Shown: piece by piece, positions 18,323 through 45,793 of the stretch | Layout of the letters: the number at the start of each line of letters is the position of its first letter | Position numbering within the stretch: position 1 is the first letter of the stretch | Virus record (IMG/VR): IMGVR_UViG_3300011960_000019 | Length of the DNA: 64,000 nt | Direction: 5' to 3' (one strand) | Source of the DNA: a virus | Lineage: Duplodnaviria; Heunggongvirae; Uroviricota; Caudoviricetes | The notes under the pieces: model-generated | Database searches by the model: none | What the model saw: only the letters and a program-made list of their open reading frames with translations | What the model was told of the DNA's origin: nothing | Position numbers and translations under genes: made by a program

Positions 18323-18423
18323 TTTCCGTATTATCACCAACAAGAAAACAAATTGGTTACTAATACGGAATTACCATCCGTAGAAGTACAAAGTGACAAC
18401 GCCACATAGTTGTTCGGCAACGG

Positions 18424-18813
18424 ATGAGAAGGAGATCGGGAATGAAAAATTACAGCGAGATGACGGACTTTGAGATTAACTGCCTAGTCGCGGAAGCCAC
18501 CGGCCATCGACCGCTTATCTCACAATATGGCTGGAAAGGCTCACAGGAAGGCGATTACACCGCAGTAGTCGCCATCGGCCCGAACGGAGCCGGAACCTTC
18601 GACTGGTGTAACGATCCGGAAGATGCGTGGGACATTATTTACCGACACAGAATCGGCGTAATCCCCGCCAGACAGCCAGGTGAGTGGAGAGCGGCCCACA
18701 GAAAGGTGGATAGCTCAACGCCACAACATCTGATCCAGAACCCTAACCCTTTCAGAGCGGCAATGACCGTGTTCCTTTTAATGCAGGAGAAAAAGCGTGA
18801 AGAAACTGTATGA
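18424..18813 (+). CDS. hypothetical protein
   Basis: ORF track. Preceded by a copy of the conserved leader cassette (18326-18360). Confidence 0.4.
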   Translation: MRRRSGMKNYSEMTDFEINCLVAEATGHRPLISQYGWKGSQEGDYTAVVAIGPNGAGTFDWCNDPEDAWDIIYRHRIGVIPARQPGEWRAAHRKVDSSTPQHLIQNPNPFRAAMTVFLLMQEKKREETV

Positions 18814-19207
18814 CGCGGCCAACGCTGCGCTGGATGTCGTGGATACCGAAATTGCCCAGGGCTTCCCGGAGCCAGAATGGGCGACGCAGCTGCGTGAGGC
18901 AATTGCAGAGATGAACGCACCGGAACCTTCAGAAGATGAAGCCGACTGGCAGCGTTTCATCAGAATGTACGCGGAAGAGATTGGCCCGACGCCAACCGCT
19001 GAACAGGCCATGCTGCTCAAGTACTTCAAGGAGGCTGGAGAGAATCTGCCGGTTGATGATACACCGCACTGGTTTCACGCCGCCTGGCGTAAGTTCGACG
19101 TGATCTACACCCGCGGTCTGGGAAGCAAAGATATGGTCGTCTGGCATCTGATGCACATTGATAAAGCTGTAGACCGCACGCTGGAGAAGTTCTTTCCTCC
19201 AGCCTGA
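18797..19207 (+). CDS. hypothetical protein (136 aa)
   Basis: ORF track. Overlaps the previous stop. Confidence 0.4.
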   Translation: MKKLYDAANAALDVVDTEIAQGFPEPEWATQLREAIAEMNAPEPSEDEADWQRFIRMYAEEIGPTPTAEQAMLLKYFKEAGENLPVDDTPHWFHAAWRKFDVIYTRGLGSKDMVVWHLMHIDKAVDRTLEKFFPPA

Positions 19208-19275
19208 ACACAATGATTGTGCGCCGCATGGCGCACATTAATATAAATAAGTACTTACCAACAAGGAGAAATCAC

Positions 19276-19551
19276 ATGAAGATTTTGGTTCGCATTTCAG
19301 CCAGCACCGACTATGACGTTTACCCGTTGTTCATGGTCAAGAGTGATGGGCTGAACGATGAAGAAATTCAATCGGCAATTGAGCGCAATCTCGTTGAGTA
19401 CACTGGCATGGATGCAGATTCTGTGTATGTCGATGATGACGGTGTTTGTTGGCACAACGGTAGTTGCTGGTACGTCGACGACACGATGCCGGTAAGCGAT
19501 GAAGACGCGGCTCATCTTGAGCGTATCTTAGGCATCAGCACTTTTGAGTGA
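19276..19551 (+). CDS. hypothetical protein (91 aa)
   Basis: Internal Met with RBS aaggag. Palindrome-family motif at 19248-19259 upstream. Confidence 0.4.
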   Translation: MKILVRISASTDYDVYPLFMVKSDGLNDEEIQSAIERNLVEYTGMDADSVYVDDDGVCWHNGSCWYVDDTMPVSDEDAAHLERILGISTFE

Positions 19552-19591
19552 TATTTACAGCAAAAAATGTATAAGTTAGTATCTACCTATC

Positions 19592-19771
19592 ATGAAAACT
19601 GTATTAGACACTTTATTACTTATTGTCTCGATAGCTTTTGTGCTCGATTGCATCTTCACCGGAGCAATCCGTAAGGCGCTGGCGCCTGTTAATGGCGCGA
19701 TGGTTAATGCGCTGGCCGTAGTGCTAGTATTCGACTCAGCATTCGGCGTTATCAAAGGAGTCGTGGCATGA
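19592..19771 (+). CDS. small membrane protein (59 aa, two predicted TM helices), below the track's size cutoff
   Basis: Translated by hand as MKTVLDTLLLIVSIAFVLDCIFTGAIRKALAPVNGAMVNALAVVLVFDSAFGVIKGVVA. Its stop overlaps the next start (ATGA). Confidence 0.4.
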   Translation: MKTVLDTLLLIVSIAFVLDCIFTGAIRKALAPVNGAMVNALAVVLVFDSAFGVIKGVVA

Positions 19772-20103
19772 AGAAACTAGCCCTGGCTCTGGCGCTGCTC
19801 TCCCTCCCTGTATACGCGGACACGCACGTCTATGAGTGTGAGATGTCAGTGGCCGAAGTGAAAAACGACGTGATCCGCAATGTCGTCAAAGCCAGCTACG
19901 GCGCGATGGTTGTGGACAGCGGCGAACAGTTTTATGTTGTGCGCGATGATCGCGTCCTGTCTTCCCCCTATCTCACCAAACGTAACGGCAAACTGTCTGG
20001 CGTGGGTGAAGATAAGTTCGTTTACAACAAATCAGGTGATGTCTACGGCGTTCACGCGAAGAACGCCAGCTACCTTTTCGATGACTGCAAGGAGGTTGGT
20101 TGA
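19768..20103 (+). CDS. secreted protein with signal peptide (111 aa)
   Basis: MKKLALALALLSLPVYA signal sequence. Confidence 0.5.
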   Translation: MKKLALALALLSLPVYADTHVYECEMSVAEVKNDVIRNVVKASYGAMVVDSGEQFYVVRDDRVLSSPYLTKRNGKLSGVGEDKFVYNKSGDVYGVHAKNASYLFDDCKEVG

Positions 20104-20315
20104 TGGCGGTTACACTGGCAGGTCTGGAAATCGAAAAAACAAGCGGCTACTGGCGTGCCAAAGGGTTTAAGCAACCCGGCGTGCTGGAGCGACTGGAACG
20201 TGAGGACGGTGTCATTGTCCACCAGCGTCGCGAATGGCGCATGTACGATCCGGAAACAGGTAAGCTCACGACGAAGGCCGGGACACTCTGGGGTCTGCTG
20301 AAGAAAATCCACTGA
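20100..20315 (+). CDS. hypothetical protein (71 aa)
   Basis: ATGA coupling to the previous gene. Confidence 0.35.
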   Translation: MMAVTLAGLEIEKTSGYWRAKGFKQPGVLERLEREDGVIVHQRREWRMYDPETGKLTTKAGTLWGLLKKIH

Positions 20316-20319
20316 CAAC

Positions 20320-20880
20320 CCTAACCACTGCGGTGAGTAGCCAGCTCACCGCGTGCGTATCCGGCCCATAACCACTGTAGTGAGTAAAACGCCTGCCGTG
20401 ACATCCGGTATCCACTGTAGTGAGTAAAGTGGCGATTATCGACGTCGCTATCCACTGTAGGGAGTAAACAGGCGTTCATCCGCAGCAAACAACCACTATA
20501 GAGAGTGATGGAATGCGTTCTCCAGCGGGTATCCACTATGGAGAGTAAACCTTCACTGTTTTCAGCGGATATCTACTCACTACAGTGGTTAGCAAATCCG
20601 GCCAACCGATTCTGCTCTCCACAGTGGATAGCCAATAACAACGGGAACAACGATAACCACTATAGAGAGTGGATTTAACAAGATACCCAGTGACCACTAA
20701 CCTCGCAGCCCTTGTTTCATCTGGGTTTGTAACCACTAACATTTATTTCGTTATTTGAGCGCTACTACCTACAGTGGTTACTCTTCGGTTGTTGTTACTC
20801 ACTACAGTGGATAGCGGATTTCAGATAAACAAAAGGCTCACTACAGTGGATAGTGAGCCTTTCTACTCTCTACAGTGGTT
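20320..20880. repeat. iteron array (about 14 copies of (A/T)CCACT(G/A)TAG(T/A)GAGTA in both orientations), incA-like copy-control locus downstream of repA
   Basis: Direct reading, e.g. aaccactgtagtgagtaaa, atccactgtagtgagtaaa, atccactatggagagtaaa, and reverse copies tactcactacagtggatagc. Confidence 0.8.
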
Positions 20881-20883
20881 GGG

Positions 20884-21948
20884 CTATTTGCGAGCTTTTG
20901 CCTTGCGTAGCTCTTCGAGAATCGCCAGTTCTTCCTTGCTCAACATGACCATCTCACCGTCTTTTTCTTCAGGAACAACATCGATGATGTCCTCCTGATC
21001 ATCACCAGGCAAGCTATCTTCCTGCTCTTCTGGTTCTTCCGGCGCAGCACTAGCTGGTGGCAATGCCGGGCGTAACTTCGGCCGCCTATAGTGGATGATG
21101 AAGTAGACCGAGCTGCCGCGCTTCACTTCGGTGTAATCGAGATAGCCGATCTCCCGCAGCTGCTCCATCGCCTTCCTGACTGTCGCGTTCTGGGTAATGG
21201 TGCGGCTGGTTAAGTTAAGTCTGGCGCGTAAGCGAGCCAACGAGATTGGTGCCGGGTCAGGTGGCAAACTTTCGATGAAGGTGTAGAGCGCCTGCGCGGA
21301 TTCTTTTCTGGAGAGTTCGTTAATTGCCCGGAGTTGCAGAAGAACCTTTTTGTCGAACTGGTAAAGTTCGAAAATCTTAGGATCAGCCTGCAGCGAGACC
21401 GTGTCGTTCTTTGTGCTGTACTTTGCTGTCTGCACAAGGTGCGTCACGTAATACTCATCAGAGCCTTTACTGCGGAATGAGATAGTGTTTGTGGCAATAC
21501 GAGTTAGAGAACTGTCCAGGCGCTTGCGTAACTTCGCGGACGATCTGGCCGTTGGTATGCCACAGAGCCTGACGAACTCGACGAACGGTAATGTGACAGT
21601 GTCGCCAACAACCTTGTGCTTGGCGAACGCGTGGATGATGCCTACCCACGTTTTGAAGTCGTTATCCATATCCAGACGAACGCCGGAGATCCTTATGTCC
21701 TCGTACCCTTCGGCTTTGGCCAGAGACAGCTGTTTGAGTTCAGCAGAGGCGTCCATAGAGACCATTTGCCCCTTTCTGCCCCTGGCGGTCGATTTCAGCG
21801 TCGGAACGAAGAGACCAAGACGCATCAGAGCAACGGGCTGAACTGTGTTGTTGGTGTTAGGAACTAACGTAACAACTTCACCGGTCTTTTTGTCTGTTTC
21901 TGAGAATGCTTCAACGATCGCTATGTTTTTATTGCCGTTTTCGCTCAT
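20884..21948 (-). CDS. repA: RepA-like iteron-binding plasmid replication initiator
   Basis: 354-aa protein flanked on both sides by iteron arrays. Acidic C-terminal tail. P1/IncY-type replicon architecture. Confidence 0.7.
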
Positions 21949-21959
21949 TCCAAGTATCT

Positions 21960-22265
21960 CTTTTTATTCGACCGCTTTGGTGGCCTTTACTGATTACAGT
22001 GGATAGTAGCACTCATCGCAGCGGTTATCCTACCGCCTATAGTGGTTTTTCTACTCTCTACAGTGGTTGGTTTACTCTTCATAGTGGCTGATCTTCTCTC
22101 TATAGTGGATATCGATCCCCTCTAAAGCCATGTGGCACAACGGTTTGCGGGGTGCGGGGATCTTTTTGGGTCTTTGTGGGTCTCTTTGGTTCTCTTTGGG
22201 ATCTGAATTACTGGATCGGGCCTGTGTATAAAAATCAGGTAATTGCAAAACCAGCTATCACTCCC
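21960..22265. promoter_or_regulatory. origin module copy A: five iterons plus a GATC/GGTCT-repeat AT-rich stretch (oriR-like)
   Basis: Iterons at about 21985-22115 immediately upstream of repA, followed by ggggatctttttgggtctttgtgggtctctttggttctctttgggatctga...ggatcgg. Confidence 0.65.
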
Positions 22266-22384
22266 CTTCTGGGGATAATGTGTGGTCGAAACAAACACGC
22301 CTGAACGCAAAACTTCCAACATCTCTATGAATATCAGCCACCTGCGTAGAAAAACAGGCACTGAGTTATCCAGTTAAGACAATG

Positions 22385-22640
22385 TCTCCTACTCACTACA
22401 GTGGATACCGACCACTCTCCAGAGAGGTTGTTTTGCTCTTCATAGCGGTTATTATGCTCTCTACAGAGGTTACTTTCCTCCCCATAGTGGATAGTAACCC
22501 CCTCTCAGGCCAGTAACCGCAACGGCTGGAGACGATCGGGGATCTCTTTTGATCTTCTGTAGGATCTCTCTGGGGATCTAATTATTGGATCGGTCCTGTG
22601 AATAATGGGTATAAGTAAAACAGGCATTTGCAAACATCGG
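22385..22640. promoter_or_regulatory. origin module copy B (diverged duplicate of copy A with six intact GATC sites)
   Basis: Iterons at 22385-22500, then cgatcggggatctcttttgatcttctgtaggatctctctggggatctaattattggatcgg. The downstream flank aligns with copy A. Confidence 0.6.
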
Positions 22641-22691
22641 TGCGCCTTGTCAGTTATCGTTGCCCCGGACAAAACTATTTGAATAAGAATT

Positions 22692-23336
22692 ATGGATCTC
22701 AAACGCACGCGCTGGGTTCGCCGTCTTGAAGATGGCTCCTACACCATTGAATCGAACACTAGCCTGAACAAACAGAAGTTGCTCTGCGACCTGTGCGGCA
22801 TTGCGTCGAAGTGCCCGATTAACGAAACCAGGCTCAAACTCCACGACGCCGGTGCGCACTTCCACCTGAACAGCTGCATACGTTACGTGCCACTGCTGGC
22901 ATTTCGTAAACCGATCATCGGATTAGACGCTCCCTACTTCAACACACTCCGCTCTGGTGTAACATGGCGAGACCGTGTCGAACCTGGCAAGCTCGTTTGT
23001 CTGGTTGAGGCTGATACTGGAAATACCATCCGGTTCGGGAGAGTCGATAAGGTCTACTCCGGCCCGGTGGATGAGATGCTGCGGAAACACAGCCGGTTTA
23101 ACCATCTCTGCATGGGTGGAGAGAAGATCGAGAAGGTTGGCGAAGTGATCCGCAAATCCTACGGACACTTCCTGAACGACGACAGCCTTCTTACGGCCAT
23201 CTACATTCGCCATGTCGATCGGGAGTTCGATACGGAGTATCACAGTGCTGAAGAGTTGAATCTTGTCGACCCTCGCCCAAAAGCTGGGGTAATCGACATC
23301 AGCGTAGCGCGTCAGAAGCCCCCTGAGACGTTTTAA
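22692..23336 (+). CDS. hypothetical protein (214 aa)
   Basis: ORF track. Possible beta-barrel (ASCH/PUA-like) segment. Not confidently assignable. Confidence 0.4.
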   Translation: MDLKRTRWVRRLEDGSYTIESNTSLNKQKLLCDLCGIASKCPINETRLKLHDAGAHFHLNSCIRYVPLLAFRKPIIGLDAPYFNTLRSGVTWRDRVEPGKLVCLVEADTGNTIRFGRVDKVYSGPVDEMLRKHSRFNHLCMGGEKIEKVGEVIRKSYGHFLNDDSLLTAIYIRHVDREFDTEYHSAEELNLVDPRPKAGVIDISVARQKPPETF

Positions 23337-23411
23337 ACGTAAACTCATGGTTTTACCGGGGCATAAAATATGGTGTCTTAGAAAGACACTGAGAGCTTTA
23401 GGGATTAATAC

Positions 23412-23906
23412 ATGAGTGAATTTTATTCTAGGGCAGCAACTGTGGCAGACATGCCATTTATCATGAGTGAGTTCGAAGACGGCGCACGCAAGGGTCACTT
23501 CTACGAAGAGATCCTCACATCAAAGGGGGGTAAAACCTTTGAGAAGCAGACCAGGCTGGCCATCCAGACGAACGAGCAGGGCCAATACTCCGGGCATTAT
23601 ATCTACATCCTGCTGCGCCGTTCTGATGACAAAAAAGCAGGGCTAATCTGGTTCTGTGCCGCACTCGATCCAACCGGTGCGCCACGACTTGAACTCCGTG
23701 CCGTCAGTATCGTCAAAGAGCTGCGCGGGAAAGGCTATGGGTCAATGCTGGTGTCCGACATGATCGATTCAAACCCGAGCCAGCCGATGATGGCGAAGTG
23801 CTACGTCAAATCCTCGCAAATGGCCGACATGCTAAAACGCAGAGGTTTTCACCTTTTCGACACGTCACCCAAAGGCACGCAGATGCTGTTTCGCGATCCA
23901 AAGTAA
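23412..23906 (+). CDS. GNAT family N-acetyltransferase
   Basis: LELRAVSIVKELRGKGYGSMLV matches the acetyl-CoA-binding R-x-x-G-x-G/A motif. A terminator hairpin follows at 23908-23935. Confidence 0.65.
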   Translation: MSEFYSRAATVADMPFIMSEFEDGARKGHFYEEILTSKGGKTFEKQTRLAIQTNEQGQYSGHYIYILLRRSDDKKAGLIWFCAALDPTGAPRLELRAVSIVKELRGKGYGSMLVSDMIDSNPSQPMMAKCYVKSSQMADMLKRRGFHLFDTSPKGTQMLFRDPK

Positions 23907-23937
23907 AAAGCACCCCATATGAGGTGCTTCTGAAGAA

Positions 23938-24441: not shown

Positions 24442-24669
24442 CGTCCGTTCTCCTTTTTCGTTTAGTTGTCATCAATGAGTGACTGCGATTATAGAGTGGC
24501 TTGTAACATTTAGAAATCTATGCCGCTTCATAAAATAGGTATTCACTTACTTATATATTTTGTCATAATCGTGTCCCTGTAGATTTTCTTCTGTGCCGTG
24601 TTGTCTGGGTTGATCGCCTCTCAAGCACGCTTAACATCTGTATCAAAATAACCACAAAGGAAAAGACAC

Positions 24670-25755: not shown

Positions 25756-25796
25756 GTACGAGCCATTCTGGGAGCTTTCGGGACTTCATCTCCACG

Positions 25797-28637: not shown

Positions 28638-28648
28638 GGAGACGAAAA

Positions 28649-35453: not shown

Positions 35454-35532
35454 CAATGAAGACCTTCAGCGTGGGCGTCCGCCTTTACGTAGCGTTTGCC
35501 CACCTTTTCAGTCACGCCACAATAACGCCATC

Positions 35533-35555
35533 GAGAAAACAACTTGTTTAAAAAC
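35533..35555 (+). promoter_or_regulatory. conserved promoter-leader cassette (AAACAA-N-TTGTTT family)
   Basis: gagaaaacaacttgtttaaaaac about 20 nt upstream of the ATG at 35571. Confidence 0.5.
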
Positions 35556-35570
35556 ATAAGGAAAAAACAC

Positions 35571-36143
35571 ATGTGCGAAAAATGCAAAAAAACTAATGCC
35601 AAAGTTGAAAACGTGATTAAAAAAGTTGGTGCGGCCGAACTGGTTGAGATCATGGGTCTTGTGGTTGGTCACGAAGACGACGCCTCCCCTATCGACCGCC
35701 TTTTCAGCGTTCTCAAGTTCTCAAGCATGATTGATGATCCGATTGAAATTGTGATGCTGGCGCGTCATTTCGGCGAAGCGTATCTGGAAGAGAAAGAACG
35801 CGCCGACAAACTTCAGGCAACTCTGGAAATGGTAAGCAAGCCGAAGTGCTCACCGGATTCAGTCAAGGCAGATGAAACCAACGCCAGCAAAGATCGCGAA
35901 ATCGCCGGACTGAAGTCTTCTCTGGCGATGTTGCTGGCTGCCTTCAAACTGATGTCTTCCCAGGCTGGGTTCAAAATGCCTGAGCTGAACAGCGACGATC
36001 CGATGGCCGTTCGCCAGCTGCTGGGGCCAATGGCCGACCAGCTTGACGACACCAAGAGCCGTCTTGAAGACATGATGCGCGAGCTGACCCATCGCCACGA
36101 CCTGAACAAACAGCCGCACAAAACGCAGCACGTACACCACTAA
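35571..36143 (+). CDS. hypothetical protein (190 aa)
   Basis: RBS aaggaaaaaac. Terminator at 36161-36183 (gggggcgaaagccccc plus T-run). Confidence 0.45.
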   Translation: MCEKCKKTNAKVENVIKKVGAAELVEIMGLVVGHEDDASPIDRLFSVLKFSSMIDDPIEIVMLARHFGEAYLEEKERADKLQATLEMVSKPKCSPDSVKADETNASKDREIAGLKSSLAMLLAAFKLMSSQAGFKMPELNSDDPMAVRQLLGPMADQLDDTKSRLEDMMRELTHRHDLNKQPHKTQHVHH

Positions 36144-36243
36144 TTTCTCACCTGCCGACAGGGGGCGAAAGCCCCCTTTTTTACGCCTTAAATCAGCTGC
36201 AACGCCTGTGAATGCTGCTTTTACGCCTTTTCAACTTTGGGAA

Positions 36244-36273
36244 AATAACACCAACAAGAAAACATTTTGTTTA
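36244..36273 (+). promoter_or_regulatory. conserved promoter-leader cassette
   Basis: aataacaccaacaagaaaacattttgttta. Confidence 0.5.
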
Positions 36274-36284
36274 ATGGTGCAATC

Positions 36285-37619
36285 ATGAATACAGCCCTTT
36301 CCATCATTGACGCTATCACCCCAAACACTGATATCGACTACCGGCAGGAAATGAACGTCATCCACGAAATTGTGGCCGAGTGCGAGAAAGAGATCGCATT
36401 CATGCATCAGGTTCACGACTTCGTTTATGGCGACGAACGCCACAACATGATTAACCGCCTGCTGCGACTCAACCACCGGCCGGATGACGAGCGCACACGC
36501 TTTAACAGAGCCTGGCTGGACAAGGTCGACCTTGAATGGGTGAAACAGAATATCTGGGCCGAGTACTGGAAGAAGGTCACGGATATGACAAACGTTCTGC
36601 TGATCATGCCAGCTTCCCGCCGCGACGAGTGGCGTGAGCAGTTTATCGAGGGCAAGCAGGAGACCATCAGGACTGACAGAACCGGCTACCAGATGAAGGT
36701 TAAGGAGTTCGTTGGTGTGCCGGAGTTCAAAGCAGAAACGGTCATCCCAACGATGCTCAATCTGCTGAATGACAGGCACAAATATCTCTCTGAGCGCGTG
36801 TATGGCTTGTTTAAAGCGCTGAGTCCTGCCCACAAGACCAATAAGACGAACGGCTTTAGCGAGCGTCTGATCATCGCCAACTGCATTTCCGATTTCTGGC
36901 GGGACAGCGTCAGCGTGAACTACCGGAAAGAGGACTACATCGACGACCTGCGCGTCATGCTTCATTTCTTCGCACACAAAGAGTTCATCACCATCAACCG
37001 CACAACTGAGATGCTATCAGCTGCGTACCGGGCAAACGACTGCCAGACCGGTGACTGGATGAATGTCGACGGAAACCTGATGCGCGTGAAGATGTTCAAG
37101 AACGGCAACGTTCACTTTGAAATACATCCTGACGTGGCCTGGAAGCTGAATGAGGTGCTGGCTTACAGTATGCCTGCAGCAATCCCGGCGCCATGCCGTA
37201 CTGCACCCAAAACACGGGCACCAAAAGAGTTCGGGTTAATCCAGAAGACGATCTCCGAGCCGGCTCGTACCGCGCTGCGCGAGGGGCGATTCAGCAAAGA
37301 CAAAGGCGTCTGGTACTTCTCTGATTCCAACCTCCAGAAGTCGCAGGTGGAAGAGCTTGAGCGCACACTGAACTTCATTGGCGGCGTACAGGAGAAAAAG
37401 CACTGGCAGTTCCCGTATGAGATCGGCCATACGCTCAATACGATTGTGGCCACCGGCTTAATACCGGATACAAAATCACACCAGTTCTACCCTACCCCAC
37501 GTTTGATAGCGGAGTACGTTGCCAGAGCCATTGAGCTGAAGCCAGGTGAGAAGCTGCTGGAGCCTGAAGCCGGGCGTGGAGATCTGCTGGCCTGCATCGA
37601 CGCTAATCCGGAATCATAA
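36285..37619 (+). CDS. protein with uncharacterised N-terminal domain and C-terminal AdoMet-MTase motif I (truncated N6-adenine methyltransferase-like)
   Basis: The last 45 residues, FYPTPRLIAEYVARAIELKPGEKLLEPEAGRGDLLACIDANPES*, match motif X/I of gamma/beta-class N6A MTases. The ORF stops 10 aa after motif I, and no NPPY/DPPY motif is present. Confidence 0.5.
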   Translation: MNTALSIIDAITPNTDIDYRQEMNVIHEIVAECEKEIAFMHQVHDFVYGDERHNMINRLLRLNHRPDDERTRFNRAWLDKVDLEWVKQNIWAEYWKKVTDMTNVLLIMPASRRDEWREQFIEGKQETIRTDRTGYQMKVKEFVGVPEFKAETVIPTMLNLLNDRHKYLSERVYGLFKALSPAHKTNKTNGFSERLIIANCISDFWRDSVSVNYRKEDYIDDLRVMLHFFAHKEFITINRTTEMLSAAYRANDCQTGDWMNVDGNLMRVKMFKNGNVHFEIHPDVAWKLNEVLAYSMPAAIPAPCRTAPKTRAPKEFGLIQKTISEPARTALREGRFSKDKGVWYFSDSNLQKSQVEELERTLNFIGGVQEKKHWQFPYEIGHTLNTIVATGLIPDTKSHQFYPTPRLIAEYVARAIELKPGEKLLEPEAGRGDLLACIDANPES

Positions 37620-38616: not shown

Positions 38617-38671
38617 GCCAGATAAGGCCACTATTTGTGGCCTTAAACAATTTGTTTTATAGGTGGTGAAA

Positions 38672-38875: not shown

Positions 38876-39061
38876 CGTTTCCTCCTTTCACTTGGGTCAA
38901 ATCAGGTTTCAAAAATTGCCGCTTTTCATGTATGTGCGGTTTGCAAAATCTCAAGTTCCGAAACAAATTGTTTTCACCACCTTGTTATTCAATTAACCAG
39001 TAAAGTTGACCAGTACCGTAAAAAATACAACTGTTTATACATTCAGTGTTGAGGGTGAACA

Positions 39062-39328
39062 ATGGGTAGCAAGAATTCCAAATATGTGATCGTCTATAGG
39101 GGCGAAGCACTCGAGCACTTAATACCTGGACAGTTCGTTTTCTTCCAACGTAAAAAAGAATACGGCGATGGATTCTGGCTTGGTAAAACGCATGAGGACG
39201 GGTTCGAGTTTGTGCTGGAACAACCCACTTCACTTAGTTACGGGCTTGCGTATCTGATCAGTCTGTCTAGTGTTGAAGCCAGACATATGGAGTTTGTGGA
39301 CGACATAGATGATTTTAAATTGACCTAA
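39062..39328 (+). CDS. hypothetical protein (88 aa)
   Basis: ORF track. Confidence 0.4.
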   Translation: MGSKNSKYVIVYRGEALEHLIPGQFVFFQRKKEYGDGFWLGKTHEDGFEFVLEQPTSLSYGLAYLISLSSVEARHMEFVDDIDDFKLT

Positions 39329-39412
39329 TTACCCCTTAAACATTTTGTTTTCAGTCTTTTGTTATCTGAGATAATAACGCATATAAGAAAACAATTTGTT
39401 TAAGGAGTTGGT

Positions 39413-39730
39413 ATGTTGAAGCTCACGGAAGTCTACAAAACGGCAGTGATCAGCACCGCTCATGTAACGGCAGCGGATTCAGAACGGCTACCCATTGCCT
39501 GCTTCGACCCACTTACTGATCGCGGGTTGAATTGGGTACACGGTACACAGTACGGCTGGATTGTTCGTGCTGGAATGCGAGGGAATGACTGGAAAGAAGA
39601 GCTGCGTGAGTATGGCATTTCCGAAGAGACGATCTCTAACATACAGACCATAGTGGATGCCGGCTTTGACGCGGTTCACTTCGATTGCGACGCCGAGCTG
39701 GTGGACGGATTACCTGGCTGGGACTGGTAA
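39413..39730 (+). CDS. hypothetical protein (105 aa)
   Basis: RBS aaggag. Leader cassette at 39368-39405. An 11-bp IR hairpin follows at 39752-39797. Confidence 0.45.
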   Translation: MLKLTEVYKTAVISTAHVTAADSERLPIACFDPLTDRGLNWVHGTQYGWIVRAGMRGNDWKEELREYGISEETISNIQTIVDAGFDAVHFDCDAELVDGLPGWDW

Positions 39731-39811
39731 GCCTTTTTTTGTCGTGGACAGATCGGCTCTCCATGTGAGATACCAGATATCAGAGCCGATCTCATAAGGG
39801 ACATTTTCTGC

Positions 39812-40648: not shown

Positions 40649-40789
40649 GTTATTGTCGAAATTGTAGCGTTTATTTGTTTACACATATAAGAAAACAAAT
40701 AAATAACAAGAGCTATAATATCTTGGCTAAGTAGTTGATCGGCCCCCTTAGTCAACCGATTACTGGAACGAGACATTTAAGAGGACAAT

Positions 40790-41980
40790 ATGACGGATAC
40801 AGCTTTTTCGAAATCGTTACAAAAGGAAGTCGACCCCGAGCAGTACTTGGCACTTAAAAATTTAGATGATAGCTCAGTTCATGCTGTCGCTCGTGAAGAC
40901 ATCATCTGTCCAATTTGCAAAGTCGGAGGTGGCTCGTTTGTTAGAGCCTCTAGGAATGATGGTTATCACAAGAAGGCGCATTTCAGATTTACTGGTGAAG
41001 CTGGCCAAGGCCACCATCCATCATGTGACTTCTACGGAGATAGGTTAACATCTGAGGTAAGGCAGCACCTTGTCACATTCACGAAAGATCGAACAAAGTA
41101 TTCGCAGGTAATACGAAAACTGGTATGCGCCGGCATACAGGAAGGGATTTTTACGCAAGAAAAAATGTGGCAGATGAGGGAATGGTTCTTCAATAAGCGT
41201 AAGGACTCCACATTTGAAATATGGCTGGAAAAGGGTCATTTGGATTGGCTTGACTATATTAGCGGGTTACGTGAATCATATTTGGCATGGACAAACCCGG
41301 ATATTATGCCTTTCTCACCCATTCAGGCTACTGTGCCTGGTTTTTCTTGGTCTCGTGCAATTGACAAAGAGGTGCTAAGAGTTCACATCAAGACTCTCCA
41401 GCAATTGCGTAAAATTTCAGTATCCCATAGAGACATTTCGGCAATCTTAGAACACATAGATAATAATCGTGGCCGTGCAATTCTCGACCCATCGCTTTTG
41501 GAAGATGAGATAAATAAGACTTACAAGCTTACTGGGTTTGTGATGAGCAATTACATTGAGTTTAAGACAAAAACGGTTAGCGACAGAGCATATGGAGAGG
41601 CTAAGTTTCTGGCATTTGCCGCACTGCTGTTATTCGTGTCTGATTGGGATCTCAACATTGCTATTGGTAAGTTTTCCAAGATTGCCAGAGTGAAGGAGGT
41701 TGATGACATGCTGGCTGGTAATTTCATTGGTCTTAACCCTTACTTCCGGTACGACGTGGCTAAAGCTGTGAAGAAATTGCAGGATAACTGGCCGATTGAA
41801 TACCAAGAGTTGGAACATTGGGATGTAGAAAAATCTATGCGTGAGGCATATGAAAAGTGGTGTTCGACAGAGCCAGAATTCGCTCCACCTCTTTTACCCG
41901 ACCTGTATGTTACCCAACACGAGAAAGAAGTCGCACGAGACGAGGAAATCAGGCAGTGGATTAAGAACGGAGATGTTTGA
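40790..41980 (+). CDS. hypothetical 396-aa protein with N-terminal Cys/His cluster
   Basis: CPICK...H...HHPSCDFYG suggests a zinc-binding module. The rest is unassignable. Confidence 0.45.
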   Translation: MTDTAFSKSLQKEVDPEQYLALKNLDDSSVHAVAREDIICPICKVGGGSFVRASRNDGYHKKAHFRFTGEAGQGHHPSCDFYGDRLTSEVRQHLVTFTKDRTKYSQVIRKLVCAGIQEGIFTQEKMWQMREWFFNKRKDSTFEIWLEKGHLDWLDYISGLRESYLAWTNPDIMPFSPIQATVPGFSWSRAIDKEVLRVHIKTLQQLRKISVSHRDISAILEHIDNNRGRAILDPSLLEDEINKTYKLTGFVMSNYIEFKTKTVSDRAYGEAKFLAFAALLLFVSDWDLNIAIGKFSKIARVKEVDDMLAGNFIGLNPYFRYDVAKAVKKLQDNWPIEYQELEHWDVEKSMREAYEKWCSTEPEFAPPLLPDLYVTQHEKEVARDEEIRQWIKNGDV

Positions 41981-42417
41981 GCACAACTAGCTTAATCAAT
42001 CCGTTGACATTGGCGGTCACAAATTGAGGATTTCTATAAGAGTCCGTTGATCGCCACTTTCCCCACCTCTCCAACCTACCCCAACCCAGGCGTGACAGGG
42101 CATTTAAGCAAGTTACACCCATAAGAAAACAAATAAATAACATATCAACGAAAAGTCAACGCTTTTCCCTGATTTGGTCTAAAAAGTTGACGTTTTCGCA
42201 CGCCATCTCTTATATCCAAAATCCTGCGCACCAGAATCCATCTCCCTGCGACCAAAACGCCAAAAACGACTCGTGATACCACCCCAAAACAGACACACTC
42301 AGAAGCGCTCCCGTTGCGTTATATTGGACGTCTAAACAAGTTGTTTTCATGCACAAGAAAACAAGTTAACCACACCCACAGGAAACCCAGAGACGCCACT
42401 GCCCACAATCCCGGAAA

Positions 42418-42509
42418 CACCCACCTCTTCCTGTCAGGCTACCGAAAAGACCCACCTCTTTGCCCCAGGCTACAGACCACCCACCTAATCTTCCCAGGCA
42501 ACCGAGAAC
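42418..42509. repeat. three tandem ~30-bp direct repeats ACCCACCTCTT-N5-CAGGCTACCGA
   Basis: Units at 42418-42448, 42449-42477 and 42478-42509. A fourth copy lies at 45650-45684. Confidence 0.7.
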
Positions 42510-42529
42510 GCAGCTCGCGAATGCAAACC

Positions 42530-42800
42530 CCTACACGCCATTACCCAATACACGGAGAAGAACAACCAGAACGAAACCCCGGACAAACCCAGACCAGAAC
42601 AGGAACCGTCGCCATCTCGCTTACCCACCATTACCCCGGAAGAGAACGCAAATTCCTGAATTGCAGGGAACGCCTTTACTTCATATGCGGAGAACAGCAA
42701 AAGCGCCCTACTGCCATTACCCACACTTCCACCATTTCACGTAAACGGAGAGAAAAGCGCACCTGCCATTACTCAATACACGGAGAAGAAAACTCACCAA
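42530..42800. repeat. four spaced copies of (T)GCCATTACCCAATACACGGAGAAGAA-like repeat at ~80-bp intervals
   Basis: Copies beginning at about 42536, 42617, 42711 and 42762. Confidence 0.6.
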
Positions 42801-43127
42801 AACGACGAGAACAACCCAGACGAAAACACAAAGAAGAACCACCTCAAGAAGAACAAAACCACATACGCCGGTAGAGAGAACAAACCACCCATTTCACCCA
42901 AAGGAATACTCGCCGTATAGAGCGTTATCAGGGGGAAGGTTTGCACGTCCACAGGAGAGAAAATCCGTAGAGATTTAACTGGAGGTATAAGTGGGAAGAG
43001 GGAGAGGGGTATCGCTACTTTCTCCGTAGAAATTCAAGCCATAGTTTTCATCCCTCGTAATGTCTCTCTCCACCCCTTCGGTCAACCTTCGGGACATCCA
43101 GGGAAAAGGCCATGTCCCTTTTCAGAA

Positions 43128-43290
43128 ACGGGAGCGTCGCAGCAGGGAAACGGCTGGAGATTTTCAGGGAAACGGTGGGAATCCCGCTATACGAACCGGG
43201 AAAAGGCTGGCTGCCGGTCGGGAAACGGGTACATCCCGGTACAGAGCGAGGGACGGCTGCGGGAGCGGTGCGGGAAATCCTCGGGAGTGC
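43128..43290. repeat. cluster of GGGAAACGG(C/T)(T/G)GG direct repeats
   Basis: agggaaacggctgg, agggaaacggtggg, cgggaaaaggctgg, cgggaaacgggtac, cgggaaatcctcgg. Confidence 0.6.
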
Positions 43291-43392
43291 GCCTTACTCT
43301 TCGCTCGCCTGAAAATCGCGGGGGAGTGTCGTTCCCTCTCGTGCAGCTGCTGAACTCCATTCTGCCAGACCATCCTCGGGTCTCAAGCGATT

Positions 43393-43602
43393 TCAGTAGG
43401 TTTTCGGGGGAGTTTTCTTCTGTTTCTTCTCTTCTCGCAACCTGCGGGCCAATTGCTTGATTTCTTCATCTCGTGCTTTTTGTTTCTTGCCAAGTGGTGT
43501 TTTGGAATGTCTCCATCCGCGCCATGAGCAGTAAACGATTGTGAAAACAATAAGCACGGCATCCCACGAAAGAAAGCCATTTTTGTAGAGCCAGTCGACC
43601 AT
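43393..43602 (-). CDS. small membrane protein with basic C-terminus (69 aa)
   Basis: LIVFTIVYCSW TM segment, then KQKARDEEIKQLARRLREEKKQKK. Confidence 0.4.
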   Translation of the reverse strand: MVDWLYKNGFLSWDAVLIVFTIVYCSWRGWRHSKTPLGKKQKARDEEIKQLARRLREEKKQKKTPPKTY

Positions 43603-43706
43603 TATATACCCCCATTAGATTGCTTAGGTTGTACAACTTATGAGTCGCTTCAGCAATGTAAAAATAGTTGCTGCCCTTGATATTATTCTTTTTCGCCTAT
43701 GTCTTA

Positions 43707-43746
43707 TTGCGATAATAACACCAACAAAAAAACAACGTGTTTAGGC
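43707..43746 (+). promoter_or_regulatory. promoter-leader cassette with extended -10 (TTGCGATAAT) and AAACAA-N-TTGTTT leader
   Basis: ttgcgataataacaccaacaaaaaaacaacgtgtttagg. Confidence 0.55.
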
Positions 43747-43759
43747 AAATGAGAAACAC

Positions 43760-43975
43760 ATGTACGAGCATCTGAATATCAGCATCACTCTCTGTGGCGA
43801 GGAAGCGTCATCCGAGTGTGAGATCTCCCTCGATGACGTTATCCGTTCCCTGGATGTTGCTGGTCGCGTGGCGACGCTCATCTCTGAAGGACGCAGAGAG
43901 GGGACGTTTGATTTCCATATCGAGGACAACCCAATGTCCGTCGCGTGGAACTGCACGACGTCAGAAACGAAGTGA
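43760..43975 (+). CDS. hypothetical protein (71 aa)
   Basis: ORF track. Confidence 0.4.
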   Translation: MYEHLNISITLCGEEASSECEISLDDVIRSLDVAGRVATLISEGRREGTFDFHIEDNPMSVAWNCTTSETK

Positions 43976-43985
43976 GGGTGAAGAG

Positions 43986-44204
43986 ATGATTAAGATGCCT
44001 GTGATGGTTGAGGTGTGGAGCGTGGATTCCTTGGCTGAGTGCCTGGATGCTGTGGGGCCGGAGTTGTACCGCAAGTTGTGGTCGTTCGTCCCGGCTGAAG
44101 GGGAATCACCCAAAGGGAAGGATATCTGGCATCTGCTCAGTGAAGATGAACAGCGGGAGCTGGTGGACGCGGTACACATCGAGTTCCCGGACGACGAAGA
44201 TTAA
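43986..44204 (+). CDS. hypothetical acidic protein (72 aa)
   Basis: Internal Met of track ORF 43794..44204 with RBS gaggg. The upstream part of that ORF overlaps the previous gene out of frame. Confidence 0.4.
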   Translation: MIKMPVMVEVWSVDSLAECLDAVGPELYRKLWSFVPAEGESPKGKDIWHLLSEDEQRELVDAVHIEFPDDED

Positions 44205-44295
44205 GCGTGAGGCCACCGTGCTGGTGGCTTTTTGCTGTTTGCAACCTCCGGGGCAGCGTAGCACCGTAACGCTATGCTTTGTAGCCGTTTTCTCG

Positions 44296-44336
44296 CTGGT
44301 ATTATTTACACCAACAAGAAAACAAGTTGTTTACGG
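44296..44336 (+). promoter_or_regulatory. promoter-leader cassette
   Basis: ctggtattatttacaccaacaagaaaacaagttgtttacgg. Confidence 0.55.
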
Positions 44337-44344
44337 AGTGAATT

Positions 44345-44656
44345 ATGAAGAACGCGATGATCACCAAACTGAGCGCGGGCCAGCCACGTAAAGAAAAACC
44401 AACCGTAATGAGCCAACTGACCCTGCTCGATATCATTGCCAACGGCACTGCCATTCGCCTGTTCAAAGAGACGCTGGTCTCGTTCGACAATGGTTACCGC
44501 ACGCGTTACGTAATGAGTGTGCGTCGCCAGAGTGGAAGAGGGTGGATGGCAAAACAGATCATCTGGCCAGAAGGAGAGCTGGAACAGGCGCTACTGGAGG
44601 CGAACAAAGTAGCCCAGCAAGAAATCCAGCGTGCCTCTCTCCTGGCGACAGCCTGA
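44345..44656 (+). CDS. hypothetical protein (103 aa)
   Basis: Terminator at 44684-44712. Confidence 0.45.
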   Translation: MKNAMITKLSAGQPRKEKPTVMSQLTLLDIIANGTAIRLFKETLVSFDNGYRTRYVMSVRRQSGRGWMAKQIIWPEGELEQALLEANKVAQQEIQRASLLATA

Positions 44657-44784
44657 CATGTGCAAAAGCGATTAGTCGTCCCTACGACAGCCCCGTCCAT
44701 CCTTCGGGGCTTTTTTGCTTACCTGTATTGTAAGTACTTACCTATGACAATAATATAATCAGGTCAACAACAGGGAGACCAAAA

Positions 44785-45180
44785 ATGACTGTAATTCGTG
44801 AAAACCTGGTTCTTGATTTGTACTATGCGTCAGAAACAACCTCAGGCGGAAAAGTTGCAAAACTGACCGCTATTCTGCGTGACAGCACGAACGGGACTGA
44901 AGTGCTCACCACCACCCTGATCCGCACCGGGACAGAAGAGGATTGGGTGTACACCGTAGGCTTCCAGAGCATCAGCGACGCATCCGAACCAATGCTGCTG
45001 AAACTGGAAACGTATTTCCGCGGCGTAGACAAAGAGATGTTTGAGAAGATGATGGTGAAAGCAGACGAGCTGTACACCTCCTACTTGAACCCGAGCAACA
45101 CCTGGCTTGGACAATACGGTCTGCGCATCGTGTCCAACGAACCGGTTGAAAACTACATCCCGGAAAGCGTATTCGCTTAA
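44785..45180 (+). CDS. hypothetical protein (131 aa)
   Basis: Palindrome-family motif and promoter at 44720-44760. Terminator at 45186-45212. Confidence 0.45.
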   Translation: MTVIRENLVLDLYYASETTSGGKVAKLTAILRDSTNGTEVLTTTLIRTGTEEDWVYTVGFQSISDASEPMLLKLETYFRGVDKEMFEKMMVKADELYTSYLNPSNTWLGQYGLRIVSNEPVENYIPESVFA

Positions 45181-45251
45181 TCCCTCCAATGGCGCGTACC
45201 CCGCGCCATTTTCTTATCCCCGATAACAAAATGTTTTTTGCCTTATCCACA

Positions 45252-45290
45252 TTGCGATAATTACACCAACAAGAAAACAAGATGTTTACG
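45252..45290 (+). promoter_or_regulatory. promoter-leader cassette
   Basis: ttgcgataattacaccaacaagaaaacaagatgtttacg. Confidence 0.55.
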
Positions 45291-45291
45291 C

Positions 45292-45588
45292 ATGGCGGAT
45301 ATGCACATGACCGATTTCACTATCTCCCCTAAAGCTGAAAACGTATGGCTGGAATCCTGGCTCGACCTGTCGCCGGAAGAACAGCAGGAAATGGATCACG
45401 TTGAACAGGACGAACAATATGATGCCCGCTTCTTCCGCTTTGAGGACAGCGTTTATGATATTGCCGACTTCATGCGCGATGACCGCTTCCCGGACTGGCA
45501 CGCAGGCTACCCATTAAATGCCTTCGCCATGCTGATGATCCGCGTGGATGGCTCCGGCGATACCATCGACGTCGGTCTGCTCCACTAA
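45292..45588 (+). CDS. hypothetical acidic protein (98 aa)
   Basis: Met immediately after the leader cassette. Terminator at 45593-45620. Confidence 0.45.
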   Translation: MADMHMTDFTISPKAENVWLESWLDLSPEEQQEMDHVEQDEQYDARFFRFEDSVYDIADFMRDDRFPDWHAGYPLNAFAMLMIRVDGSGDTIDVGLLH

Positions 45589-45740
45589 GAGAACGAGGCC
45601 ACCCATGCCGGTGGCCTTAAATGACCATCCTGTTTCCCGCAGGCTAAAAACACCCACCTCTTGTCGCCAGGCTACCGAACAACCCTCCGACTCCCTGCCG
45701 GCCACCAGCTGCCGGAACAGAACGCTTGGACGCCTTATGC

Positions 45741-45785
45741 GCGTAGCGATAATTAAACCAACAAGAAAACAAGTTGTTTAAAGGA
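45741..45785 (+). promoter_or_regulatory. promoter-leader cassette
   Basis: gcgtagcgataattaaaccaacaagaaaacaagttgtttaaagg. Confidence 0.55.
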
Positions 45786-45793
45786 TTATCACC

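Follow-up and report, generated by a model that had tools for sequence, protein, structure and literature searches.

The stretch of DNA analysed here (the window, 64,000 nt) carries a repeated cassette that, judging from its sequence in the window and in relatives, is a genuine lineage-wide control unit made of a promoter, an A-rich leader and a 13-bp palindrome, AAACAANTTGTTT. Our preferred reading, held with modest confidence, is that the palindrome most likely lets one putative regulator silence many gene units in the plasmid state. The source of the window is an SSU5-like phage-plasmid with 99.8% identity to Enterobacter pMS-37c. No description of the palindrome motif was found in the literature searched. 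An initial annotation had noticed the repeat and offered an interpretation; the observation is partly confirmed and the interpretation partly supported.

Enrichment and copies of the motif

The repeated element reported in the initial annotation is enriched far beyond chance. In the window, the palindrome core has 14 matches at one mismatch or fewer against 0.17 expected (16 against 4.4 at up to two mismatches), the 26-mer ACACCAACAAGAAAACAAGTTGTTTA has 6 matches at up to three mismatches against 0 expected, and AAGAAAACAA, the A-rich left part, has 8 exact matches against 0.28 expected. The sequence TTGCGATAAT, proposed as the defining extended -10 element, is not enriched by itself (7 matches in the window against 4.8 expected) and is exact in only two copies; the general promoter feature is a TGn-extended -10 with GATAAT, TATTAT or GAAAAT.

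Fourteen places had been listed as copies of one cassette. Palindrome units are present at many of them, but the set is heterogeneous: the copy at 39331 is inverted, that at 38641 adjoins a terminator, that at 38958 is separated from ydfZ downstream by 85 nt, those at 40671 and 42117 keep the left half, and that at 42338 is a palindrome with a half copy. Moreover, two copies were missing from the list, one at 8980, ahead of the cobT-like gene, and one at 45224. Nine promoter-leader units reach a start codon (palindromes at 8980, 18346, 35537, 36260, 39389, 43730, 44320, 45275 and 45767), and the palindromes at 38645 and 42334 have no promoter geometry (Table 1). The association of terminators with the cassettes holds in so far as terminator-like hairpins are enriched in the 35.5-46.3 kb block (32 against 14 +/- 4) and lie upstream of several cassettes.

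Table 1. Cassette copies and candidate regulator genes in the window
Feature	Position	Strand	Details
CI-like HTH repressor	8040..8426	-	adjoins integrase
A-type cassette	8959..9014	+	TGATAAAT -10 region, leader, exact palindrome 8980-8992, ATG 9012; CobT-like gene behind (+; Pfam CobT/CobT_C)
A-type cassette	18329..18444	+	TATTAT 18329-18334, palindrome 18346-18358 (1 mismatch), ATG 18442; NinX/DUF2591-like gene behind; terminator GGCGTCCAcTTGGACGCC then T-run 5' of cassette
A-type cassette, weak -10	35518..35573	+	exact palindrome 35537-35549, ATG 35571
A-type cassette	36238..36287	+	TGgGAAAAT extended -10, palindrome 36260-36272 (1 mismatch), ATG 36285 of DUF4942 protein
Exact palindrome	38645..38657		adjoins bidirectional terminator hairpin between LprI-like gene (+) and ydfZ (-)
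Exact palindrome	38961..38973	-	divergent region, ydfZ (-, ATG 38875) / ORF 39062-39328 (+); flanks indicate minus strand
Paired cassette	39338..39415	+	B palindrome 39338-39350 inverted over -35 region, 19 bp 5' of TGaGATAAT (39367-39375); A palindrome 39389-39401, 51 bp from B; ATG 39413 of DUF5983 protein
Left-half-only copy	40671..40707	+	AAGAAAACAAATAAATAAC at 40689-40707, inverted half TTATTTGTTT before; upstream of gene 40790-41980
Second left-half-only copy	42123..42141	+	AAGAAAACAAATAAATAAC; kept in relatives
Palindrome plus half copy	42334..42364		exact 42334-42346, then half AAGAAAACAAGTTAACC (from 42355); in 1.1-kb unannotated C/A-rich repeat region
A-type cassette	43708..43762	+	TGcGATAAT, palindrome 43730-43742 (1 mismatch), ATG 43760
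A-type cassette	44297..44347	+	TGgTATTAT, exact palindrome 44320-44332, ATG 44345; terminator 44209-44231 upstream
Paired cassette	45224..45309	+	degenerate inverted B palindrome 45224-45236 (2 mismatches) over -35 region; DnaA-box-like TTATCCACA 45243-45251, TGcGATAAT; A palindrome 45275-45287 (51 bp from B), ATG 45307
A-type cassette	45748..45796	+	GATAAT 45748-45753, exact palindrome 45767-45779, ATG 45794
FljA-family protein	48149..48676	-	PF03614, E = 4.5e-97; candidate binder of A-rich leader RNA
92-aa protein	49163..49441	-	shares lysogen-expressed operon with helicase 49444-51003; expression seen for Cyrano homologue

Promoter geometry and conservation

The palindrome takes two fixed positions at the promoter. 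At the A-type position it lies 13-14 bp downstream of the -10; among the 269 non-identical sites of the window and 52 relatives, the end of a -10 hexamer stands 14-15 nt ahead of the palindrome, and the last T of the hexamer is kept in 242. At the B-type position it lies exactly 19 bp upstream of the TGn-extended -10. With the start site predicted from sequence, the two positions would be about +8 to +20 and about -44 to -32. They are paired at a distance of 51 bp in 57 distinct contexts, at 50 bp twice and at 52 bp never. Every A-type site falls within the 5' leader and shares the polarity of its gene, usually standing 0-8 nt ahead of the Shine-Dalgarno sequence. The non-homologous parA promoter of the relative Cyrano (TTTACA-17-TAGGCT) has the palindrome at the equivalent place with a gap of 15, and in K. 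pneumoniae pfekpn2511-2 seven promoters carry the full palindrome solely upstream of the -10, outside the mRNA, while their leaders retain AAGAAAACAA only. The site is incompletely symmetric: its flanks, GA...A, are always oriented toward the promoter core, the left half is more conserved than the right (31 deviations against 84 in the 269 sites), and the right half is absent in about 30% of AGAAAACAA contexts. The half-site centres are 7 bp apart, which is unusual for helix-turn-helix dimers.

With regard to conservation in related elements, on which the initial annotation had let its reading depend, the motif is kept across deeply diverged SSU5-like lineages. The palindrome is identical across lineages whose proteins are 30-70% identical, and the motif is invariant in elements of Escherichia, Klebsiella, Salmonella, Yersinia, Enterobacter and Cronobacter. 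Its family is restricted to SSU5-like contigs in a scan that lay outside host chromosomes, other contigs having one match each, or two in two cases. The proposed early or host-takeover block at 35.5-46.3 kb is not supported, because in complete relatives the family is dispersed genome-wide and stands additionally 5' of terS, parA, the replicative helicase, nrdB and cobT. The idea of promoter-plus-leader cassettes common to a co-regulated gene set is supported.

The palindrome as a putative operator

The palindrome had been suggested to act either as an RNA hairpin or as an operator for a dedicated regulator. The hairpin option is not supported: in folding, the cassette leaders do not surpass shuffled sequences (z-scores between -1.5 and +0.9), the palindrome forms no consistent hairpin, and Rfam gave no relevant matches. 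Because of this folding result, and because one lineage keeps the full palindrome mostly upstream of the promoter with AAGAAAACAA alone in the leader, we regard the palindrome as a putative DNA operator, distinct from the A-rich leader, which would be an element of its own. The operator option is favoured by the fixed distance to the -10, the untranscribed site 19 bp upstream, the 51-bp pairs, the invariance of the motif and the silence of the cassette genes in a lysogen. In the Cyrano lysogen of LF82, expression of the genes that immediately follow A-type sites does not rise above background (5.7-12.9; median 9.8), with parA (49.8), CYRAN_32 (21) and CYRAN_111 (25.5) as exceptions above it (PMC9928086 S1 Table). 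Most prophage genes are equally silent in the lysogen, and thus this silence is no proof of repression.

In the mechanism that we propose, each cassette would consist of an extended -10 promoter used by host sigma-70 and, behind it, a short A/C-rich leader without structure that leads directly into the ribosome-binding site. AAACAANTTGTTT would be a DNA operator downstream of the start site, over the -35 region, or at both places 51 bp apart. A protein bound at either position would exclude RNA polymerase, so that one conserved regulator may keep about 15-20 dispersed transcription units silent in the plasmid-prophage state, or shut them off together. AAGAAAACAA would be a separable leader element. 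On our inference, binding represses and the binder is one of the element's own proteins.

Candidate regulators and alternative readings

Upstream of the CI-like repressor gene there is another dispersed palindrome, GGTAAGTGCTTACT at 8458. A ribbon-helix-helix reading of the 92-aa protein was not confirmed. The conserved lysogen-expressed operon encodes proteins that evolve fast: between lineages the FljA-like protein is 34% identical and the small protein is barely detectable, a poor match for an invariant site. Every SSU5-like element examined has the FljA-family gene. An AF2 model of its product (pLDDT 83.5) has two modules, each of a helix and five strands, and its approximately 50 top matches in the PDB are nearly all Hfq (TM 0.7-0.84, rmsd 1.0-1.7 A); we predict an RNA binder with two tandem Hfq/Sm-like domains. 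The protein is only about 35% identical to flagellar FljA, and lysogens express its Cyrano homologue (at log2 7-8 under several conditions; PMC9928086 S1 Table). Given this predicted fold, the A-rich leader half may have another RNA-level role, being read on the mRNA by the FljA-like protein.

It seems unlikely that the palindrome and the rest of the conserved leader together form an RNA operator, an A-rich/U-rich stretch beside the ribosome-binding site to which the FljA-family protein would bind, blocking translation and destabilising mRNAs as FljA does with fliC mRNA; PMC2652032 cites FljA as preventing translation of that mRNA. The clear PF03614 match, ubiquity, Hfq likeness and lysogen expression of the protein fit such a role, as do the A-type sites just 5' of the Shine-Dalgarno sequence and the AAN/ARN triplets (AAC AAG AAA) of the leader. 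The fliC leader of Salmonella/Citrobacter also has CAAGTTGT about 24 nt 5' of its ATG, and its local similarity to the cassette leader was reached by 98 of 5000 shuffles; on the other hand, the E. coli fliC leader has no such similarity (2244 of 5000). Moreover, B-type copies lie outside the regulated mRNA, yet in one lineage they rank first in conservation among the full palindromes, and the exact 19-bp and 51-bp spacings are tied to the promoter and not to the start codon. The leaders have no stable hairpin, the protein is 32-34% identical between lineages while the motif is invariant, and a ring-forming Sm protein offers no reason for a perfect palindrome.

Less probable still is a binder made only after induction, with the ParB_N-ParB_N-ATPase-88-aa operon upstream of terS as candidate, acting as a temporal switch that shuts off units with downstream sites and possibly activates those centred near -38. 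The window encodes two ParB_N proteins (51086-52434), and the operon is 66-88% identical between diverged lineages and ends in relatives at a palindrome pair before terS; a site centred near -38 is placed much like class I KorB operators or class II activators. However, in the lysogen these operon genes stand at background and the cassette genes are already silent, extended -10 promoters should need no activator, and the terS-proximal part of the operon is lost from the window. There is a slim chance that a conserved host factor reads the site, namely IHF, H-NS through the A-tract/T-tract DNA, or host Hfq through the A-rich leader. Across six host genera the motif stays invariant while the candidate regulators of the element diverge, and it is two mismatches from WATCAANNNNTTR, which we take to be the IHF consensus; but its restriction to SSU5-like contigs in the scan outside host chromosomes, and a strictness of both halves and of spacer length beyond the needs of degenerate IHF/H-NS sites, speak against this. 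Very improbable is shared ancestry only, in which duplicated terminator-promoter-leader modules are recombination joints for gene shuffling and the palindrome has no binding partner. Six copies do have 26 nt in common together with pieces of one terminator (TTGGACGCC then a T-run), and homology breakpoints with 50+ relatives cluster at cassettes (39.3-39.4, 43.65, 44.25-44.3 and 45.2 kb). Breakpoints cluster at cassette-free intergenic sites too, however, and the palindrome is kept while its flanks diverge, occurring in the non-homologous parA promoter and in two exact geometries; regulation is in any case compatible with a recombination role.

The preferred reading, a DNA operator shared by dispersed promoters, has parallels in known systems. 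The P1 plasmid-prophage likewise has scattered units, each with one operator overlapping its promoter, and a single repressor silences its whole lytic programme. The P1 genome paper (Lobocka et al. 2004) reportedly gives an asymmetric 17-bp C1 operator, ATTGCTCTAATAAATTT, which differs from the 13-bp palindrome here and is unrelated in sequence. The KorB OB operator of the IncP plasmid RK2 (with KorA OA as companion) is a 13-bp palindrome, TTTAGCSGCTAAA, in about a dozen dispersed copies, of which class I lies just upstream of the -35, at about -39/-40. This is close to the B-type position at about -38, and the present element encodes ParB_N proteins; however, the two operator sequences are unlike, the ParB_N genes of Cyrano are not expressed in the lysogen, and most sites here are found on the downstream side of the -10, a position outside the KorB classes. 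With regard to FljA and the fliC leader of Salmonella, the element encodes a clear PF03614 member, a short 5' leader directly before the ribosome-binding site would be its target, and CAAGTTGT and an A-rich run are common to both leaders. A single target is known for FljA, in contrast to a would-be regulon of 15-20 leaders here, and the leader similarity is weak (p ~ 0.02) and absent in E. coli. The gp71 stoperators of mycobacteriophage L5 are also many 13-bp sites scattered over the genome of a temperate phage, with one orientation to transcription preferred, but they are asymmetric and block elongation in transcribed regions away from promoters, whereas the sites here are palindromic and at fixed distances from the -10. 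Finally, the PeSL (promoter-early stem-loop) cassettes of T4-type phages and the moron boundaries of lambdoid phages are similarly repeated modules of terminator or stem-loop and promoter among many small uncharacterised ORFs of a plastic region, and are plausible joints for modular exchange, a role that may also apply here. PeSL cassettes have no operator; the most conserved part of the present cassette is the palindrome with its fixed geometry.

Copy classes and conservation of the cassette

It is evident that the repeated promoter-leader element in the window is real and lies far above chance, but the 14 copies listed for it in the initial annotation are heterogeneous and belong to several classes (Table). 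The palindrome AAACAANTTGTTT with at most one mismatch is present in 14 copies against 0.17 in Markov simulations of the 64-kb window, and with at most two mismatches in 16 copies (4.4 expected); its A-rich left part AAGAAAACAA matches eight times (0.28 expected) and a 26-mer of the leader with at most three mismatches six times (0 expected). The extended -10 string TTGCGATAAT, which had been part of the proposed definition, is not enriched when taken alone (7 against 4.8 expected). In A-type copies, one of which (8980) was absent from that list, the palindrome follows the -10 after 13-14 nt (11 at 18346) and precedes the ATG by 11-21 nt (83 at 18346). B-type copies carry it upstream of the -10, while others have no promoter geometry or keep the left half only. 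The terminators that had been assigned to the small genes are borne out in that the block has more terminator-like hairpins than expected (32 versus 14 ± 4), and several cassettes are preceded by them.

Some copies lie in peculiar surroundings. An 8-bp inverted repeat (CCGTATTA ... TAATACGG) encloses the one at 18346, and at another place the half-sites stand in reverse order with 12 nt between them (TTATTTGTTT-N12-AAACAAATAA). An 88-aa ORF has exact or near-exact palindromes on both sides (38961 and 39338); it belongs to phrog_2100 of unknown function and is annotated in Salmonella phage SSU5 and left unannotated in Enterobacter hormaechei plasmid pMS-37c. A 1.1-kb stretch without annotated gene in pMS-37c is strongly C/A-rich on the plus strand. 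It harbours a degenerate direct repeat with a unit of about 31 bp (CACCCACCTCTTCCTGTCAGGCTACCGAAAA, three times), the string GCCATTACCCAATACACGGAGAAGAA, likewise in triplicate, and GTCAACG/GTTGACG boxes in inverted orientation, and may be an origin-like or protein-binding array. The 45275 cassette contains the only perfect DnaA-box sequence of the window, TTATCCACA, between its upstream palindrome and its -10.

Coordinates of cassette copies and associated features (window positions unless a relative is named)
Feature	Position	Strand
A-type palindromes (nine)	8980, 18346, 35537, 36260, 39389, 43730, 44320, 45275, 45767	
B-type inverted upstream copies (two)	39338, 45224	
Palindromes without promoter geometry (three)	38645, 38961, 42334	
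Left-half-only copies (three)	40689, 42123, 42355	
8-bp inverted repeat around a copy	18326-18368	
Half-sites in reverse order	40671-40702	
88-aa ORF (phrog_2100)	39062-39328	
C/A-rich stretch with repeats	41980-43110	
DnaA-box sequence	45243-45251	
Second palindrome copies	3952, 8458, 9915, 19246, 30366, 31424, 34614, 44729, 58552, 61577; also about 51045-51065	
CI-like gene	8040-8426	-
FljA-like gene	48149-48676	-
92-aa protein gene	49163-49441	-
Accessory cargo 5' of integrase	1431-2414, 3992-4789, 5725-6768, 1174-1248	
terS double palindrome and hairpin, Cyrano (L005)	55-135	
terS double palindrome and hairpin, L059	about 4060-4135	

The motif is conserved in related elements, being found in 47 of the 50 relatives fetched via the FljA-like gene; the other three are short contigs of 4-7 kb. 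Moreover, it is present in lineages whose FljA-like protein is only 55-58% or 32% identical. Cyrano, a complete related phage-plasmid of the LF82 lysogen, is about 75% identical in nucleotides to the window over the matching block and has 18 palindromes across its whole 108 kb, which precede terS (two), parA, the replicative helicase, cobT, nrdB, tciA and many small genes. This spread replaces the label of an "early block" at 35.5-46.3 kb by that of a genome-wide putative regulon. When IMG/VR was scanned for AAGAAAACAANTTGTTTA, the SSU5-like contigs recovered had several palindromes each, whereas unrelated contigs gave single matches, or two in two contigs, and these stray matches were taken as chance and not as members of the family outside SSU5-like elements. 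Six motif strings did not occur in the literature searched, nor did we find there a published account of lysis-lysogeny or plasmid-maintenance circuitry in SSU5-like elements. The cassette is a genuine control element of a widespread phage-plasmid family, undescribed as far as we could find.

Promoter geometry and the level of action

To define the promoter anatomy, we combined 269 non-identical sites taken from the window, from Cyrano and from the 50 IMG/VR relatives. The -10 hexamer, with its last T kept in 242 of the sites, stops 14-15 nt short of the palindrome; the palindrome is flanked by AGA on the 5' side and A on the 3' side, and the GG of the RBS follows 2-4 nt further. In the window, TGn with GAAAAT, GATAAT or TATTAT occurs at 36260, 39389, 43730, 44320 and 45275, and GATAAT without TG at 45767. 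By their sequence, the cassettes thus have the features of putative sigma-70 extended -10 promoters, namely A at position 2 and T at position 6 of the hexamer and TGn before it. A generic promoter scan recovered only the copy at 39348-39375, since the others have no -35. If the start is placed 6-9 nt after the hexamer, the A-type palindrome would cover about +8 to +20. The B-type palindrome precedes a TGn-extended -10 by exactly 19 bp, which would place it at about -44 to -32. For paired A and B sites we counted 57 distinct contexts with a spacing of 51 bp, two with 50 bp and none with 52 bp; in a second arrangement, seen in 18 contexts and chiefly ahead of terS, the spacing is 25 bp. Whether upstream or downstream of the -10, the palindrome has its GA flank toward the promoter core. 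The parA promoter of Cyrano has unrelated hexamers (TTTACA-17-TAGGCT), yet its palindrome stands 15 nt past the -10.

Ahead of the terS start, related elements have two palindromes at 25-bp spacing and then a GC-rich hairpin with a T-run (GAGCGCatggacGCGCTC...). This arrangement suggests that the late operon may be controlled there by a putative operator and a terminator; the terS-proximal double-palindrome region is deleted in the window.

The palindrome had been proposed to act either as an operator or as an RNA hairpin. With regard to the hairpin, eight leaders folded no better than their shuffles (z from -1.48 to +0.89), the palindrome was not seen as a consistent hairpin in these leaders, and Rfam gave no relevant family match. 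Deviations from the palindrome are single-sided and mostly at inner positions, with no paired changes. We regard the comparison with the K. pneumoniae element pfekpn2511-2 as decisive: seven of its promoters have the full palindrome only upstream, 19 bp before TGnGATAAT (with TGn in 7/7 of these B-type promoters), and their leaders contain just AAGAAAACAA or a shorter A-rich run. An element 5' of the start at an exact distance from the -10 cannot work through the regulated mRNA, so that we conclude, from sequence comparison, that the palindrome would work on DNA and that the A-rich leader would be a separable element. This split fits the better conservation of the left half (31 deviations versus 84 in the right half among the 269 sites) and the AGAAAACAA contexts without right half (about 30%), several of which run directly into the Shine-Dalgarno sequence. 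The operator option is therefore the best reading, in the form of a promoter-proximal putative DNA operator at two fixed positions, by which one sequence would serve many dispersed units.

Published RNA-seq data on the LF82 (Cyrano) lysogen show background levels for the genes that A-type sites immediately precede (5.7-12.9 versus a median of 9.8), except for parA (49.8), helicase (21) and CYRAN_111 (25.5), and expression was found for RepA, the CI-like repressor, toxin-antitoxin genes and the helicase operon (PMC9928086 S1 Table). Promoters that look self-sufficient yet are silent fit repression, but this is only consistent with it, as most prophage genes are silent too.

Candidate binders and a second palindrome family

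The binder candidates expressed in the lysogen are the CI-like, the 92-aa and the FljA-like protein, the latter two from a conserved lysogen-expressed operon that also encodes a UvsW-like helicase. The helix-turn-helix of the CI-like protein is invariant between the window and Cyrano, and in both elements the region upstream of its gene carries a different palindrome, GGTAAGTGCTTAC(T/C). This palindrome belongs to a second dispersed family, (ATA)GGTAAGNNCTTACC(TAT), which has ten matches in the window against 1.19 expected, one directly 5' of the CI-like gene and one in the promoter of the gene at 44785-45180; the divergent helicase-operon promoter region holds a related copy. In Cyrano, copies precede tail fibre, holin, nrdA and dam genes. 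Because its own upstream region carries that palindrome, we provisionally assign the CI-like protein to this second family as a putative binder. The second palindrome probably represents a second regulon, of CI operators or of late-promoter sites, and two dispersed palindromes suggest at least two layered regulons.

The partition systems presumably differ among these elements (e.g. P1-type in pMT1), and the partition ParB was set aside as a binder for this reason. A ParB_N pair, an ATPase and an 88-aa protein encoded 5' of terS are 66-88% identical between lineages, and their genes are silent in the Cyrano lysogen (PMC9928086 S1 Table). In the window, the ParB_N pair is encoded at 51086-52434. 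The 92-aa protein had been taken from an initial sequence reading for a CopG-like ribbon-helix-helix repressor, which no tool confirmed: Pfam had no match for its Cyrano homologue, in PHROGs the window protein falls into a family without known function, an AF2 monomer was all-helical (pLDDT 67.6), Foldseek and a PDB profile search gave noise only, hhalign with CopG, Arc and Mnt returned only 0.7% probability, and its narrow family of 25 representatives had no RHH Pfam matches. Moreover, its putative DNA-facing residues vary between lineages. Together with the FljA-like protein (32-34% identity), it is among the fastest-evolving products between lineages, barely or not detectable in pfekpn2511-2. 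Since the same motif is kept in lineages where the FljA-like proteins are 55-58% and 32% identical, the invariant motif would, if anything, speak against a fast-evolving binder.

The FljA-like protein matches PF03614 over its full length (E = 4.5e-97, 323 bits). Its model (pLDDT 83.5) has two tandem helix-plus-five-strand modules, whose closest solved structures are almost all Hfq (TM 0.7-0.84, rmsd 1.0-1.7 Å), so that an RNA-binding Hfq/Sm-like fold without helix-turn-helix is predicted; its predicted oligomer is a trimer with a ring of six domains. The RNA-binding fold agrees with a passage in PMC2652032 that cites FljA as blocking translation of fliC mRNA. In the literature searched, FljA was linked neither to Sm/Hfq folds nor to phage-plasmids. 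The Salmonella and Citrobacter fliC leaders have CAAGTTGT about 24 nt before the ATG, a string that also occurs in the cassette palindrome, where it stands comparably far from the start codon; the likeness to the cassette is modest, its score being equalled in 98 of 5000 shuffles (p about 0.02), versus 2244 of 5000 for the E. coli leader. The 5' leader carries AACATCAAGTTGTAAT in Salmonella and Citrobacter (among the fliC loci L181-L190) and ATCAACGACTTGCAAT instead in E. coli (L008).

The FljA-like tandem Hfq-like protein may act on the A-rich leader RNA as a second layer. In a wider form, the FljA family would be tandem Hfq-like rather than helix-turn-helix proteins, the SSU5-type member a global post-transcriptional repressor of 15-20 phage mRNAs via AAGAAAACAA with or without UUGUUU, flagellar FljA its domesticated relative (or vice versa), and the same units would be locked a second time, at transcription, by the DNA palindrome; we consider this whole scheme rather unlikely. 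If right, the tandem Hfq-like prediction would explain mRNA binding by the long-known flagellar "repressor" FljA.

The element and comparison with known systems

Identity over the 43.6-46.4-kb block is 99.8% to pMS-37c and 91.8% to SSU5, and this block matches 749 PLSDB plasmids, nearly all non-mobilizable and including Yersinia and Salmonella plasmids. The gene content (RepA, DNA polymerase III alpha, CobT-like, tape-measure, integrase, CI-like repressor) fits the assignment to SSU5-type phage-plasmids, among which we also count pHCM2 (S. Typhi) and pMT1 (Y. pestis). Several deletions are present relative to pMS-37c: homology ends at 53240, where the ParB-like/ATPase operon runs straight into the tape-measure C-terminus (53213-54325), the terS-to-tape-measure segment, the nrdAB/thyA block and a 4-kb recombination-gene block are absent, and further junctions lie at 17906/17907 and 29065/29066. 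The element looks like a deleted and probably defective phage-plasmid. Its accessory cargo 5' of the integrase encodes an AbiH abortive-infection protein, a PhoH-like ATPase, a YafO-type toxin with an adjoining small gene, and tRNA-Asn. SSU5-like phage-plasmids are very common in clinical Enterobacteriaceae, and the invariant 13-bp site with two exact promoter geometries offers a direct experimental handle as pull-down bait, as reporter and for regulon definition.

With regard to known systems, the likeness to the P1 C1 network is one operator sequence at many promoters over the whole genome, as in the 14 copies of the window and the 18 of Cyrano. The RK2 KorB network resembles it in its dispersed putative operators, and the 13-bp length and symmetry agree, but the KorB operator TTTAGCSGCTAAA, bound by a ParB-family protein, differs in sequence from AAACAANTTGTTT; membership in IncP KorB was rejected on this mismatch and because the ParB_N proteins, though present, have silent Cyrano homologues in the lysogen. 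L5 stoperators are asymmetric, lie within transcription units and are promoter-independent, unlike the cassette sites, and an L5-type stoperator was rejected because the window sites are palindromic and stand 13-14 bp after or exactly 19 bp before the -10. As for a likeness to PeSL/moron elements, HSP ends accumulate at several cassettes and likewise at intergenic sites that have none, and such homology breakpoints are only suggestive of cassette-mediated shuffling. The kind of system is known, while its sequences, geometry and players are new.
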